From Escherichia coli O127:H6 str. E2348/69 (lineage in GTDB: Bacteria; Pseudomonadota; Gammaproteobacteria; Enterobacterales; Enterobacteriaceae), in NCBI RefSeq assembly GCF_000026545.1, contig NC_011601.1: 64,000 bases of DNA; one strand, 5' to 3'. A program made the translations under genes and the position numbers. Of this stretch, positions 48,253-56,168 are shown one piece after another. The notes below the pieces were generated by a model that was not told the DNA's origin, did not search any database, and saw only the letters and a program-made list of their open reading frames with translations. Within the stretch, counting starts at the first letter, position 1. Each line of letters starts with the position of its first letter.

Positions 48253-50100
48253 ATGTTGCTTAATATGATGTGTGGTCGTCGGCTGTCGGCAATCAGTTTG
48301 TGCCTGGCCGTAACATTCGCTCCACTGTTCAATGCGCAGGCCGATGAGCCTGAAGTAATCCCTTGCGACAGCCCGGTGGCTGTCAGTGAACAGGGCGAGG
48401 CACTGCCGCAGGCGCAAGCCACGGCAATAATGGCGGGGATCCAGCCATTGCCTGAAGGTGCGGCTGAAAAAGCCCGCACGCAAATCGAATCTCAATTACC
48501 CGCAGGTTATAAGCCGGTTTATCTTAACCAGCTTCAATTGTTGTATGCCGCACGCGATATGCAACCCATGTGGGAAAACCGTGATGCTGTTAAAGCCTTC
48601 CAGCAACAGCTGGCAGAGGTGGCGATTGCCGGTTTCCAGCCGCAGTTTAATAAATGGGTAGAGTTACTGACCGATCCTGGTGTTAACGGGATGGCACGCG
48701 ACGTGGTGCTCTCTGATGCGATGATGGGCTATCTCCATTTCATTGCAAATATTCCGGTCAAAGGCACTCGCTGGCTATATAGCAGTAAACCTTATGCGCT
48801 TTCAACGCCGCCGCTTTCGGTGATTAACCAATGGCAGCTGGCGCTGGATAAAGGTCAATTGCCTACGTTTGTTGCAGGATTGGCACCGCAGCATCCGCAA
48901 TATGCGGCGATGCATGAATCGTTACTGGCCTTACTCAGTGACACCAAACCGTGGCCCCAACTGACCGGCAAAGCAACGTTGCGCCCAGGACAGTGGAGTA
49001 ACGACGTACCGGCGTTGCGCGAAATATTGCAACGTACAGGCATGTTGGACGGGGGACCGAAAATTACGCTACCTGGCGATGACACGCCAACTGACGCGGT
49101 AGTCAGCCCATCCGCTGTTACTATTGAAACAGCAGAAACTAAGCCGATGGACAAGCAAACTACGTCTCGTAGTAAACCTGCGCCTGTCGTTCGTGCCGCC
49201 TACGATAATGAACTGGTGGAAGCCGTTAAACGTTTTCAGGCATGGCAAGGATTGGGGGCAGATGGTGCTATTGGCCCGGCAACGCGTGACTGGTTAAACG
49301 TAACGCCCGCCCAGCGTGCTGGCGTGTTGGCACTCAACATCCAGCGATTGCGCTTGCTGCCAACAGAGCTTTCTACCGGGATCATGGTTAACATTCCGGC
49401 CTATTCGCTGGTCTACTATCAGAACGGCAATCAGGTGCTGGATTCGCGAGTCATTGTCGGTCGCCCCGATCGCAAAACGCCGATGATGAGTAGTGCCCTT
49501 AACAACGTGGTGGTAAACCCGCCGTGGAACGTCCCACCAACTCTGGCACGCAAAGATATTCTGCCGAAAGTGCGCAATGATCCTGGGTATCTCGAAAGCC
49601 ATGGCTATACATTGATGCGCGGCTGGAACAGCAGAGAAGCGATTGACCCATGGCAGGTTGACTGGTCTACAATCACGGCCTCGAATTTACCGTTCCGCTT
49701 CCAGCAGGCTCCAGGCCCACGGAACTCACTGGGGCGCTATAAATTCAATATGCCGAGTTCAGAGGCCATTTATTTGCATGACACGCCGAACCACAATCTG
49801 TTCAAGCGTGATACACGCGCATTGAGCTCAGGCTGTGTACGAGTGAATAAAGCTTCCGATCTGGCGAATATGCTGTTGCAGGATGCAGGATGGAATGACA
49901 AACGTATTTCTGATGCGCTGAAGCAGGGCGATACGCGTTACGTCAATATTCGGCAGTCGATTCCGGTGAATCTCTACTATCTGACGGCCTTTGTTGGTGC
50001 AGATGGTCGTACCCAGTATCGTACAGATATTTACAATTATGATCTGCCTGCGCGATCCAGCTCGCAAATCGTATCGAAAGCGGAACAATTAATCAGGTAA
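48253..50100 (+). CDS. ldtD: L,D-transpeptidase LdtD/YcbB (615 aa)
   Basis: [41 protein letters not shown]..., PG-binding domain plus YkuD catalytic [23 protein letters not shown]. Confidence 0.93.
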
Positions 50101-50280
50101 ATGAAGCAGTTCGGGGAAATCAGTTGTCGTAATAATTAGCGTGATCGGGGGCGATTCTCTGCAGCCCCCGTCACTGCTGGGGTTGAGTCATCTTGACGTC
50201 TGCTTTACGGGCGGTTAAGGTGCCTCTTGTGCGCCAGAAGTGCATATAAACGATAACATTGACCTGTAGACTTGATTATC

Positions 50281-50829
50281 ATGGACAAATTCGACGCTAA
50301 TCGCCGCAAACTGCTGGCGCTTGGTGGCGTTGCACTCGGTGCCGCCATCCTGCCGACCCCGGCGTTTGCAACACTCTCTACCCCACGCCCGCGCATTTTG
50401 ACACTCAATAATCTTCATACCGGAGAGTCAATCAAAGCGGAGTTTTTCGATGGCAGAGGCTATATTCAGGAAGAATTGGCAAAACTTAACCATTTTTTCC
50501 GCGATTACCGCGCGAACAAAATAAAGTCCATCGACCCAGGATTATTCGACCAGTTGTATCGCCTGCAAGGGTTGTTAGGCACCCGCAAACCGGTGCAACT
50601 CATTTCCGGTTATCGTTCCATTGATACCAACAATGAACTACGCGCCCGCAGCCGTGGAGTAGCGAAGAAAAGCTATCACACTAAAGGCCAGGCGATGGAT
50701 TTCCACATTGAAGGTATCGCGTTAAGCAATATTCGCAAAGCCGCGTTATCTATGCGCGCAGGTGGTGTAGGATATTACCCACGTAGTAACTTTGTGCATA
50801 TTGATACCGGGCCAGCACGGCACTGGTAG
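50281..50829 (+). CDS. mepK: Murein DD-endopeptidase MepK/YcbK (182 aa)
   Basis: MDKFDANRRKLLALGGVALGAAILPTPAFA (Tat-like signal), peptidase M15-like; start set at the internal Met of ORF 50272..50829. Confidence 0.88.
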   Translation: MDKFDANRRKLLALGGVALGAAILPTPAFATLSTPRPRILTLNNLHTGESIKAEFFDGRGYIQEELAKLNHFFRDYRANKIKSIDPGLFDQLYRLQGLLGTRKPVQLISGYRSIDTNNELRARSRGVAKKSYHTKGQAMDFHIEGIALSNIRKAALSMRAGGVGYYPRSNFVHIDTGPARHW

Positions 50830-50855
50830 TAATCGCTTAACGAAACAGGGGCAGT

Positions 50856-51503
50856 ATGAACTATCGTATTATTCCGGTCACCGCATTCTCCCAGAACTGT
50901 TCATTGATCTGGTGTGAACAAACCCGTCTGGCCGCACTGGTCGATCCTGGCGGCGATGCGGAAAAAATCAAACAGGAAGTTGATGCCAGCGGCCTGACAC
51001 TGATGCAGATCCTGCTGACTCATGGTCATCTGGACCACGTTGGCGCAGCGGCGGAACTGGCGCAACATTACGGCGTGCCGGTTTTTGGCCCGGAAAAAGA
51101 AGATGAGTTCTGGCTGCAAGGCTTGCCTGCGCAAAGTCGTATGTTTGGTCTGGAAGAGTGCCAGCCGCTGACGCCAGATCGTTGGCTGAACGAAGGCGAT
51201 ACCATCAGCATAGGGAATGTGACTTTACAGGTGTTACATTGCCCTGGGCATACGCCGGGTCATGTCGTGTTTTTTGATGATCGGGCAAAGCTGCTGATTT
51301 CTGGCGACGTTATTTTCAAAGGTGGAGTAGGGCGCAGTGACTTCCCGCGTGGCGATCATAATCAACTGATTTATTCAATCAAAGATAAATTGCTGCCACT
51401 GGGGGATGACGTGACATTTATTCCGGGTCACGGACCATTATCCACACTTGGTTATGAGCGCCTGCATAATCCCTTCCTGCAAGACGAAATGCCCGTCTGG
51501 TAA
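50856..51503 (+). CDS. gloC: Metallo-beta-lactamase fold hydroxyacylglutathione hydrolase GloC/YcbL (215 aa)
   Basis: [73 protein letters not shown]... (THxHxDH motif). Confidence 0.9.
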
Positions 51504-51509
51504 AGGTGC

Positions 51510-51540
51510 ATAAAAAAGCCCGCTTTCAAGCGGGCTTCAT
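51510..51540. terminator. Bidirectional terminator between gloC and aspC
   Basis: aaaaaaGCCCGCTTtcAAGCGGGCttcatc: palindromic hairpin with A/T runs on both sides. Confidence 0.65.
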
Positions 51541-51552
51541 CGGTTTTAACGC

Positions 51553-52743
51553 TTACAGCACTGCCACAATCGCTTCGCACAGCGGCGCCATGTTATCTGG
51601 TGTCATCCCGGCCACGTTTACGCGACCAGAAGCAACAGCATATACGCCAAACTCTTCGCGCAGACGCAGCACTTGTTCTTTTGTCAGGCCACTGAAGGAG
51701 AACATGCCGTTCTGTTTGATGATAAAGCTGAAGTCGCGATTTGCGCCTTTTTCCTGCAGCGTATTGACGAACAACTGACGCATACGCTGAATACGCTGGC
51801 GCATATCAGTCAGTTCTTGTTCCCAAATCGCACGTAACGCATCGTTGCTCAGGATGGTGGCAACAACAGAAGCGCCGTGTGCTGGTGGGTTAGAGTAGTT
51901 AGCACGAATCGCCGCTTTCATTTGGCTGAATGCGCGTTCAACAGTTTCACTGTCAGCAGCAACCAGAGTACAAGCGCCAACACGCTCGTTGTACAGGCCA
52001 AAGTTTTTAGAGTAGGAACTGGCAACAATCAGCTCCTTATGCAGAGCCGCGAAAGCGCGCAGTCCTTCAGCATCTTCTTCCAGACCACGGGCAAACCCCT
52101 GGTAAGCGAAGTCAAACAGCGGTAACCAGCCTTTCTCAACGGAGAGTTGTGCCAGTGTCTGCCATTGTTCCAGCGTAGGGTCAATGCCGGTTGGGTTATG
52201 GCAGCAGCCATGGAACAGCACTACGTCGCCAGCCTGAGCTTCGTTCAGGCTGTTAATCAGTGCATCGAAGTCAAGAGTGTGATTTTCCGCATCATAATAA
52301 GCGTATTCACGAACTTCCAGACCTGCAGAGTTAAAGACGCTCTTATGGTTCGGCCAGCTTGGGTTGCTCACCCACACACGCTTAACGCTGGTATTTTTTG
52401 CCAGGAAATCGGCAGCCACGCGTAGTGCGCCAGTGCCACCCGGAGTCTGTGCCGTGCGAGCACGTTTGTCATTGATCAGGGCGCTACCTTTACCAAACAG
52501 CAGTTCCTGAGTGCAGCGACCAAATTCAGGGATGCCGTCAATGCCGAGGTAATTTTTGGTGGTTTCATTTTCGAGCAGATACTGTTCAGCCTTTTTCACG
52601 CTGGTCAGTACCGGGGTTTTACCCGTCTCATCTTTATAGACACCAATCCCGAGGTTAATTTTGCCAGGACGTTCATCGGCTCGAAACAGATCGGCCAGGC
52701 CCAGAATCGGGTCGGCAGGAGCGGCGGTAATGTTCTCAAACAT
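51553..52743 (-). CDS. aspC: Aspartate aminotransferase (396 aa)
   Basis: [76 protein letters not shown]... Confidence 0.97.
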
Positions 52744-52869
52744 GACGAGGTTCCATTATGGTTACAGAAGGGAAGTCCGCTATCAGGGTAACGGGAGATT
52801 TACAAAATTCCAACTATTACTGATGAAAACGCAGGCTGTTTTTGCAAGACGTGAGATTGCTCTGGAAGG

Positions 52870-52902
52870 CATAAAAAAACAGGACCAAAGTCCTGTTTTT
52901 TC
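52870..52902. terminator. Bidirectional terminator between aspC and ompF
   Basis: aaaaaaACAGGACcaaaGTCCTGTtttttc. Confidence 0.65.
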
Positions 52903-52926
52903 GGCATTTAACAAAGGGGTATGCTA

Positions 52927-53997
52927 TTAGAACTGGTAAACGATACCCACAGCAACTGTATCGTCGGAACCTACGCCCAACTTGTTGTCAGAATCGATTT
53001 GGTTAATCGCATAGTCAACATAGGTAGACATGTTTTTGTTGAAGTAGTAGGTTGCGCCCACTTCAATGTAGTTCACCAGATCAACATCACCGATACCTTC
53101 TACATCTTTCGCTTTAGATTTGGTATAGGCGATGGACGGACGCAGACCGAAGTCGAACTGGTATTGCGCAACTAACAGGATATCTTGCGTTTTGTTGGCA
53201 AAGCCACCAGTGATCGGCGTAGCATTACGGGTTTCACCGTAGTTAGCTGCCAGATAGATGTTGTTAGCATCATACTTCAGGCCAGTAGCCCACTGTTCAG
53301 CTTTTTTGCCTTTGCCAAGGGTAGAGTCTTCCTGCAGGTTGGTACGGTCAGCGGCGCCATAAGCACCAACGATACCAAAGCCTTCGAATTCGTAGCTGAC
53401 AGAGCCGCCAACACCGTCGCCGTTAGAACGACGTGCAGTGTCACGCTCGTTTTTACCCAGGTACTGAACAGCGAAATTCAGACCGTCAACCAGACCAAAG
53501 AAGTTGGAGTTACGGTAAGTTGCAACGCCGCCAACACGACCTACGAAGAAGTCATCGCTGTAAGCGGTATCACCACCAAACTCAGGCAGCATATCGGTAT
53601 AACCCAGGGCATCATAAACCACGCCGTAGTTACGACCATAATCGAAAGAACCCGCATCAGCGAATTTCAGACCAGCAAATGCCAGACGCGTTTTATTGCC
53701 ATTCTGAGCATCATCACCTTCAGAGTTATTACCCTGGAAGTTGTATTCCCACTGACCGTAGCCAGTCAGATCGGAGTTAATCTGAGTTTCCCCTTTAAAA
53801 CCAAGACGGGCATAGGTCTTATCGCCATTGCCACCGTAACTGTTTTCACCATTACCCTTGGAGAAATAATGCAAACCGACAGCTTTACCGTATAGATCCA
53901 GTTTGTTGCCATCTTTGTTATAGATTTCCGCAGCGTTTGCGGTACCTGCTACCAACAGAGCAGGGACGACCACTGCCAGAATATTGCGCTTCATCAT
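52927..53997 (-). CDS. ompF: Outer-membrane porin OmpF (356-aa precursor)
   Basis: [56 protein letters not shown]...IVYQF, canonical porin with a C-terminal Phe. Confidence 0.95.
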
Positions 53998-54260: not shown

Positions 54261-54555
54261 ACAGCAATTTTTATCTATTTATATGATTTCCTTATATTTA
54301 AATTAACTAAACGGAAATTTTGTTTCTGATGGAAACTTTATCGACCAGGCACAAAATCTTCTTTCAGACATCCAGAACGCCAAAAAATTGTATGAAAATT
54401 GTGCTATCAGCTAAGAAAAAACTAATCCGCAATAAGAATGCAGATTATTTTTTTGTGCGTAAATGTTGCAGTGTAATATTCCGTAACAGGATGATCGTTA
54501 TGGCGGGGTTGCAAATAGATTGCTTGACTTAACAAACAGATAACTTGACAGAAAG

Positions 54556-54599: not shown

Positions 54600-56000
54600 T
54601 TAGAAGCTGGCGTTACGCGGAGTACGTGGGAACGGAATAACATCACGTACGTTTTGCACGCCAGTTACGTAAGCTATCAGGCGTTCAAAACCAAGACCGA
54701 AACCTGAATGCGGAACAGTACCGTAGCGACGCAGATCGCGATACCACCAGTAATCTTCTTTGTTCAGGCCCATTTCCAGCATACGCTCGTCCAGCACGTC
54801 CAGACGTTCTTCACGCTGGGAGCCACCGATGATCTCACCGATGCCCGGAGCCAGAACGTCCATAGCCGCAACGGTTTTACCGTCTTCGTTAAGGCGCATA
54901 TAGAACGCTTTAATATCTTTCGGATAGTTTTTAACCACTACCGGTGCTTTAAAGTGTTCTTCCGCCAGATAACGCTCATGCTCAGAAGAGAGATCTACGC
55001 CCCAGTAAACCGGGTTTTCAAACTTCCTGCCGCAGTTTTCGAGAATGGTCACTGCGTCGGTGTAATCCACCTGCGCAAAATCGGCCTCAATGAAGCGTTC
55101 CAGACGTGAAACGGCATCTTTATCTACGCGTTCAGCGAAGAATTTCATGTCGTCAGCGCGTTCTTCGAGAACCGCTTTGAAGACATATTTCAGCATGGCT
55201 TCAGCCAGACCCGCGATATCGTTCAGGTTAGCAAACGCCACTTCCGGCTCCAGCATCCAGAATTCCGCCAGGTGACGACTGGTGTTGGAGTTTTCAGCAC
55301 GGAAAGTCGGGCCGAAGGTATAAATTTTGGATAATGCGCAAGCGTAGGTTTCGCCGTTCAACTGGCCAGATACGGTCAGGAAAGACTCTTTACCAAAGAA
55401 GTCTTTGTCGAAATCTACTTTGCCCTGATCGTTACGCGGCAGGTTTTCCAGATCCAGCGTAGAAACGCGGAACATTTCGCCAGCCCCTTCGGTATCAGAC
55501 GCAGTAATCAGTGGCGTTGAAACCCAGAAGAATCCCTGCTCGTTAAAGAAGCGATGCAGCGCCTGCGCCAGCGTATGGCGAACGCGCGCGACGGCACCAA
55601 TCAGGTTTGTGCGCGGACGCAGGTGAGCGACTTCACGCAGATACTCAATGCTGTGGCGTTTTGCCGCCATCGGGTAAGTGTCTGGATCTTCAACCCAACC
55701 AGCAACTTCAACCTTGCTGGCCTGAATTTCAAATTGTTGCCCCTGGCCCGGCGACGCCACGACTTTACCCGTCACAATGACCGAGCAACCGGTGGTCAGA
55801 CGCAGGACGTCTTCATTGTAATTGGGCAGAGAATTATTGATGACAGCCTGTACAGGATCAAAGCAGGAACCGTCATAAACGGCGAGGAAGGAGATGCCAG
55901 CTTTTGAATCTCGGCGGGTACGTACCCATCCGCGCACGGTGACTTCGCTGTCAACGGCTACGCGGCCCTGGAGTACGTCGGCTACAGGCACAACGCTCAT
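54600..56000 (-). CDS. asnS: Asparaginyl-tRNA synthetase (466 aa)
   Basis: [61 protein letters not shown]...; start set at the internal Met of ORF 54600..56045. Confidence 0.95.
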
Positions 56001-56168
56001 AATATTCTCTCTGTTAATAGTCGGAAAAAATAAACACTTGTCCACCCGTAAATGGGGGGATACCTATGTTACCTGGCATCTGCAATCAGACAAGCAGAAT
56101 TCGCAAATGCAGCGAAAGATTTCGGAATTAAAGGTAAAAAAAGGGAGCCGATTAGCTCCCTGATGATA

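Follow-up and report, generated by a model that had tools for sequence, protein, structure and literature searches.

The ompF gene of Escherichia coli O127:H6 str. E2348/69 differs by about 10% at the DNA level from the ompF that is common in the species, and this divergence, which is confined to the coding sequence, marks the replacement of one allele by another through recombination. The gene was studied in a stretch of 64,000 nucleotides of this chromosome, the whole of which is called the window here. Taken together, the material is best explained by a rare, recombined ompF of E2348/69 type that encodes a normal channel with an altered surface at the loops L5, L6 and L2, and we put the probability of this reading at roughly 0.8. 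Homologous recombination would have put the rare allele into an ordinary phylogroup-B2 chromosome, and the piece replaced, from about codon 10 of the signal peptide to the terminator, would be about 1.05 kb long, that is to say, essentially the coding sequence only. The incoming ompF would come from a lineage whose distance from E. coli is about that of other Escherichia species, and strong purifying selection would keep the core of the channel as it is.

Identity of the gene and boundaries of the replaced tract

First of all, ompF is located at 52927..53997 on the minus strand, and its open reading frame is intact, with ATG as the start and 356 codons; it encodes a precursor of 356 aa, composed of a 22-aa signal peptide and a 334-aa mature porin. 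One neighbour is aspC (51553..52743, minus strand) and the other is asnS (54600..56000, minus strand). The place between them is the orthologous site, and the order pncB-asnS-ompF-aspC-gloC was found in every genome compared. In the ORF list asnS is extended to an upstream GTG (54600-56045, minus strand, 481 aa), while the RefSeq start gives 466 aa and the coordinates above. The protein scores 762.5 bits over its full length with the NCBIfam OmpF equivalog model NF007446, above the cut-off of 583, whereas it stays below the cut-offs of the PhoE model (497 against 599) and the OmpC model (468 against 484); Pfam PF00267 (Porin_1) also matches, with E = 5.8e-139. As read from the translation, the protein has a cleavable signal peptide and ends in a C-terminal aromatic residue (VYQF). 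In the alignments, the signal peptide (codons 1-22, 53932..53997, minus strand) carries a single substitution against K-12, I10V, or I(-12)V in mature numbering, and the ANA/AEIYN cleavage site is kept. The gene is therefore an intact, orthologous ompF, encoding a general-diffusion porin of the 16-stranded beta-barrel trimer type, whose L3 constriction is unchanged; that it forms trimers, is expressed and is active as a channel is expected from this conservation.

The DNA of the coding sequence is 100% identical in E2348/69 and six more complete E. coli genomes (7 in all), and the protein corresponds to RefSeq WP_000977937.1, which is indexed in exactly this form in 957 blocks of public assemblies, and its gene context is the same throughout. 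Since the same DNA occurs in 7 complete genomes and the same protein in 957 assembly blocks, the sequence is not an error.

The rarity of the allele became clear from a survey of 5,426 complete E. coli genomes, in about 99.7% of which ompF is only 88-91% identical to that of the window at the DNA level. Seven genomes lie at 99% or above, 4 at 98% and 2 at 94.5%, and the rest at or below about 91.5%; for comparison, 91% of the genomes are within 5% of the K-12 ompF. Against LF82, a B2 relative, 13-27 differences per 200 bp are found within the ompF coding sequence and 0-3 per 200 bp in aspC and asnS, while the asnS-ompF intergenic region shows 2-4 per 200 bp against B2 relatives. In this intergenic region LF82 lacks 21-22 bp that are present in the window and in other strains (~54512-54532), and on the other side of aspC the gap to gloC is about 172 bp longer in K-12 than in the window (~51430-51550).

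From the outermost allele-specific differences against LF82 and from sliding windows, the divergent (imported) tract covers 52872..53970, about 1.05-1.1 kb. One edge falls at ~52872-52957, in the T-run of the terminator and the stop codon, and the other at ~53970, in codon 10 of the signal peptide. The 3' signature TAATAGCATACCCC, together with a T-run one base shorter, is common to the window allele and to a related allele on the metagenome scaffold L099, which is treated below. A simple terminator scan left the ompF terminator hairpin unflagged, and a hairpin is seen by eye at ~52876-52900.

The same picture is given by the Nei-Gojobori estimates. For ompF, dS between the window and LF82 or K-12 is 0.38-0.41, compared with 0.014 for aspC and 0.057 for asnS between the window and LF82, and with 0.062 for ompF between K-12 and LF82. 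Inside the gene, dS amounts to 0.12 for the signal peptide and to 0.37-0.9 for the mature part. The highest DNA divergence (25-27 differences per 200 bp, at synonymous sites) lies over L2-L3, a part with hardly any change in the protein. In the neighbour-joining tree of aspC plus asnS, LF82 is the sister of the window strain, at a distance of 0.009, whereas in the tree of ompF the window strain stands outside all common E. coli alleles, at 0.09-0.10 compared with about 0.02 among those alleles; this depth is comparable to the distances between E. coli and E. albertii or the cryptic lineage in the flanks (0.08-0.09). That is to say, aspC and asnS are typical phylogroup-B2 sequence, and the flat flanks, the abrupt edges, the discordant trees and the mosaic relatives described next together mean that about the whole coding sequence was replaced by homologous recombination.

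The replacement was followed by further recombination. In FDAARGOS_144 and A21 ompF is of window type except for the first ~150-250 bp at the 5' end, and in Z1323HEC0423 only the 3' ~400 bp are of window type. At least three backgrounds carry the identical allele, namely E2348/69 (O127:H6), A25/DCE7 and 2022H047/048, and their flanks are mosaic. Among E2348/69, A25/DCE7 and 2022H047, a block of ~4.5 kb, from the 3' end of ldtD through ompF (window 49400-53900), is identical, and further out these backgrounds diverge by as much as 5% per 500 bp, as in pepN at 58-59.5 kb. An identical block with such diverged surroundings therefore suggests that the allele is carried within a larger shared haplotype, in which it may travel. 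In some of the genomes with the identical allele, an insertion sequence of the rve family, ~1.1 kb long, is located between mepK and ldtD (contigs L090, L095 and L098, 7803-8849); the window does not have it.

A further deep class of ompF was seen in strain E50 (L102, 1501-2574; WP_000977905.1), which is about 8% from K-12 over codons ~50-250 and has changes in L1, L4 and L5 as well as a short L6. Because its 3' end is identical to K-12 and codons ~50-250 are diverged, the E50 gene is regarded as a second, independent mosaic.

Differences from the K-12 porin and their place in the structure

Among the closest known porins is K-12 OmpF (P02931; PDB 2OMF/1OPF/3HW9), which shares the locus and the family model with the window protein and is 95% identical to it in amino acids, compared with ~10% divergence in DNA and a dS of ~0.4. 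In a phmmer search of PDB the window OmpF aligns end to end with the K-12 precursor (3hw9_A, E = 3.7e-222), and the MAFFT alignment gives 17 substitutions and one gap of 6 residues. The original prediction, which was made from the sequence by comparison with K-12 OmpF, had put the precursor at 356 aa against 362 aa in K-12, and the open reading frame and the phmmer alignment to 3hw9_A confirm this. The same alignment reproduces exactly the stretch it described as six residues shorter (14 residues against 20 in K-12) and the cluster of substitutions opposite QEAQPLGNGKK of K-12; the K-12 sequence that it used was accurate, and no exact match between the window protein and K-12 appears on alignment.

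In mature numbering, the remaining 16 substitutions are V11L, M38K, A73D, T77N, Y90F, V93A, I178V, Y182F, A202D, Q203S, P204T, N207K, S248G, V257I, F295I and I314A. The gap is located at positions 241-246 (or 242-247), where NKFTNT of K-12 is absent, and the cluster in L5 turns EAQPLGN of K-12 into EDSTLGK. From precursor residue 116 to 199 there is no amino-acid difference at all.

An AlphaFold2 model, built from an alignment of 38 sequences (mean pLDDT 81.7, pTM 0.80), has the expected 16 strands and superimposes on the K-12 crystal structures (2ZFG/1OPF) with TM 0.94 and an rmsd of 2.1 Å. The loop boundaries were taken from this model by DSSP, the model having been validated against the crystal structures, and they also lean on the boundaries of Cowan et al. 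1992. A literature search for an explicit crystal-based list of OmpF loop boundaries found none. In precursor numbering, the model places L1 at residues 47-57, L4 at 181-194, the tip of L7 at about 297-307 and L8 at 333-346. The constriction loop L3 (residues 125-153; 53539..53625, minus strand), which includes PEFGGD, is identical to K-12 in protein, and so are L1, L4, L7 and L8. The changes fall, by alignment and model, in the latching loop L2 (residues 91-101; 53695..53727, minus strand), with A73D and T77N; in L5 (residues 218-231; 53305..53346, minus strand), with A202D, Q203S, P204T and N207K; and in L6 (residues 258-268; 53194..53226, minus strand), which is six residues shorter, carries S248G and is flanked by the strands 247-257 and 269-279.

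The original prediction had also held that the changes map to extracellular loops, and this part stands only for some of them. L2, L5 and L6 together take the indel and 7 of the 16 substitutions of the mature protein, whereas the other nine, all conservative, lie in beta-strands or in the periplasmic turn T2. For all eight loops, which make up 115 of 334 residues, 7 of 16 substitutions are not a significant enrichment (p = 0.43); it is only for L2, L5 and L6, a subset chosen post hoc, that p falls to 5e-4. The reading of the changes as loop changes is thus partly supported, since there is no significant all-loop enrichment and only this post hoc subset is enriched. When dN is partitioned, it amounts to 0.11 in L2+L5+L6, 0.02 in the strands and 0 in L1, L3, L4, L7 and L8, which corresponds to a concentration of amino-acid change of about 5-fold in L2/L5/L6. 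Omega is below 1 everywhere, at 0.05-0.06 gene-wide and 0.12 in the variable loops; because the latter value, from a pairwise comparison, does not exceed 1, there is no direct signal of positive selection.

The pore itself is conserved. The residues K16, R42, R82, D113, E117, G119, G120, D121, R132, R167 and R168 are all as in K-12, so that the basic cluster K16/R42/R82/R132 faces the acidic D113/E117 as before, and the PEFGGD of L3 is kept. M38K is located in strand beta-2, two residues before Y40 and four before R42, and the periodicity of the strand would turn it towards the vestibule; a lysine at this position is common among other alleles.

As for the shorter L6, the short form (ATPI-x-GGFANK) is also found in E. 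albertii, in the cryptic-lineage strain SCPM-O-B-8794 and in several Citrobacter, as well as in PhoE-like paralogues and in two other allele classes of E. coli (SCU-316 and E50), and across the Enterobacterales the number of extra residues in L6 ranges from 0 to about 17. Because the short L6 is common to E. albertii, the cryptic lineage, Citrobacter and the other classes, an insertion in K-12 is the more parsimonious change. Comparison of the sequences thus makes it more likely that NKFTNT is a derived insertion in K-12 rather than that it was deleted in the window allele.

Origin of the allele

Where the incoming ompF came from was searched for among species-representative genomes, and among the matches listed E. 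albertii and the cryptic-lineage strain SCPM-O-B-8794 came up, neither of them the donor. The OmpF of E. albertii resembles that of the window in having 356 aa and the same short L6, yet its gene has a dS of 0.70 to the window and 0.52 to K-12, and its flanks are ~8-9% diverged, for which it was rejected. SCPM-O-B-8794 also has an OmpF of 356 aa with the same short L6, and it shares V10, L33 and TLGKGK with the window, but its dS of 0.34 for ompF reflects closeness in patches only, and with flanks that are likewise ~8-9% diverged it was rejected too. In a search of a set of 5.8 billion proteins the alleles are not separated, because clustering at 90% merges all E. coli OmpF.

A conversion of ompF by a paralogous porin of the same genome (ompC, phoE, ompN or the variable porin next to yddG) would be another possible source, and one contig seemed to speak for it. 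L099, an ENA metagenome scaffold (1-1695), joins the promoter and the signal peptide of a porin downstream of yddG to an ompF body that is 97.9% identical to the window. Up to position ~655, that is, over the 3' end of yddG, the intergenic region and the signal peptide, it is identical to L101, a longer contig from the metagenome scan that carries the true yddG-locus porin; it then switches, via a shared stretch of 26 bp, to ompF of window class, and at its end it has a terminator of ompF type in place of the 3' flank of L101. From this comparison the idea of an ompF paralogue beside yddG was rejected, and L099 is probably an assembly chimera, whose ompF part is a natural, 2%-diverged relative of the window allele. 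Moreover, genuine yddG-locus porins share just ~64% identity with ompF, the scores of the PhoE and OmpC models fall far short of that of the OmpF model, and no paralogue comes near the ~98-100% identity that would be required. Because a chimeric assembly is the most likely explanation of L099, conversion from a paralogue was dropped as very improbable.

The site downstream of yddG is in itself a variable porin slot (L100, 4476-5576; L101, 9201-10316, minus strand), occupied by the OmpC-like porin WP_000768391.1 in strain 2013C-4282 and by a different porin of 371 aa in the metagenome contig. In K-12 the same site presumably holds only a yddL remnant.

It may also be asked whether the allele was imported at all, or whether its class has long been kept within E. 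coli as an ancient balanced polymorphism, by frequency-dependent selection from phages, colicins or immunity, with the flanks homogenised by recombination. Several deep ompF classes do coexist in E. coli, of which that of E50 is 8% from K-12, and 492 ompF records lie between 90 and 95% when compared with K-12. Intragenic mosaics exist, the short L6 is common across species, and the published model of mosaic evolution agrees with such a history (10.1101/2021.09.21.461324). If selection on the loops had carried linked sites along, however, the synonymous divergence would be expected to peak around L5/L6, whereas it is uniformly high with its top over L2-L3. The divergence also breaks off sharply at either end of the gene, the class, with about 0.2-0.3% of genomes, is very rare, and its depth equals the species-level divergence in the flanks. 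A polymorphism of this kind is thus considered unlikely. Because of the uniform, L2-L3-peaked dS, the abrupt edges and the rarity, import is favoured over it. A further-reaching reading, held to be less likely than not, is that ompF was imported from an unsampled non-coli Escherichia lineage, that selection for escape from OmpF-binding phages or bacteriocins fixed it in a few E. coli lineages, and that it is now being broken up by intragenic recombination. If it is true, the window would hold a ready-made, natural receptor-swap allele, by which the host range of OmpF phages is changed and permeability is left unaltered.

The allele as such is already known, being catalogued in a preprint and in RefSeq, and it is likewise established that porin loops are polymorphic and that ompF undergoes mosaic recombination. 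Five HVR groups of OmpF, with E2348/69 named, are described by Chen et al. (bioRxiv 2021, 10.1101/2021.09.21.461324; follow-up PMC12175518), and ompF, ompC, ompA, lamB and fhuA are said to evolve as mosaics by local recombination plus positive selection. Their E2348/69 group has the same protein as the window, its HVR4 (L5) and HVR5 (L6) are far apart in the published model, and the diversity is put down to local recombination. As far as the text consulted goes, the treatment is at the level of protein and HVR, without the whole-CDS synonymous divergence of ~10%, the tract edges, the share of the 5,426 genomes with the allele, or the polarity of the L6 indel. The features of mosaic outer-membrane-protein genes are all found in the window ompF, namely a discordant tree, sharp edges, intragenic recombinants and amino-acid variation concentrated at the loop tips, with purifying selection on the rest, the last with the caveat that 9 of the 16 mature substitutions are outside the loops. 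What is added here refines this knowledge, namely where the tract begins and ends, how deep the synonymous divergence is, how often the allele occurs among complete genomes and which way the indel went. The locus makes a clean textbook case of a core gene in which a tract of about one gene length was exchanged for another allele, and it opens no new question.

Channel and receptor surface

OmpF is a main route of entry for beta-lactams and fluoroquinolones, and several phages, colicins and CDI toxins use it as a receptor or translocator. The gene is damaged in several clinical E. coli genomes (among them L103, 1501-2581), either by IS1 or IS26 or, in strain 165, by a frameshift; this is the familiar path of porin loss to lower antibiotic uptake.

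The original prediction had added that the allele may influence permeation. A large effect of this kind is unlikely, because L3, L4 and the residues that line the pore, every one named above among them, are identical to K-12. With barrel, constriction and regulatory region all conserved, the window OmpF is likely to work as a normal channel, and its bulk permeability should be essentially unchanged.

The outward surface, on the other hand, differs from that of K-12, through the two substitutions in L2, the four in L5 and an L6 that is six residues shorter. According to papers citing Traurig & Misra 1999, L5, L6 and L7 form the surface to which phage K20 binds, and changes in them block K20 binding while channel activity stays intact (PMC12032242; PMC6499177). 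Since the L5/L6 changes of the window coincide with the region critical for K20, it is plausible by analogy that the receptor specificity is altered towards phages docking on L5/L6. Recognition by K20-type phages, by Gp38-bearing T-even-like phages and possibly by antibodies would probably be altered. OmpC offers a parallel, in which variable, modular loops on a conserved barrel set receptor specificity (Beck et al. 2016, PMC5056734); there a phenotype in CdiA-EC536 and phage recognition was demonstrated for L4/L5, whereas the window ompF is known here from its sequence. A literature search for phage, colicin, CDI or permeability data on the E2348/69-type allele found none, and we infer both the selective agent and any receptor phenotype from the evidence given above.

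The loop differences could also be neutral, with no effect on receptor or permeability phenotype. Omega is, after all, below 1 even in the loops, and according to Housden et al. colicin translocation reportedly goes through the conserved lumen of OmpF. Some interactions of OmpF tolerate loop variation, given that divergent OmpF proteins, such as those of E. cloacae and Salmonella, still serve as co-receptor for CdiA-EC536 (PMC5056734). Against neutrality, however, change is concentrated about 5-fold in L2/L5/L6 and is zero in the other five loops. According to the cited papers, single substitutions in L5, L6 or L7 of K-12 are enough to abolish K20 binding (PMC12032242; PMC6499177), and a change of six residues in the length of L6 exceeds them. 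A fully neutral variant is accordingly regarded as somewhat doubtful, and the reading of a normal channel with an altered L5/L6/L2 surface is kept.

That is to say, a reference EPEC strain carries an OmpF that varies at the surface and is unchanged in the pore, which matters for phage host range, colicin sensitivity and serology. Where reagents based on K-12 are used, the surface variation of the E2348/69 OmpF is relevant to work on vaccine epitopes too.
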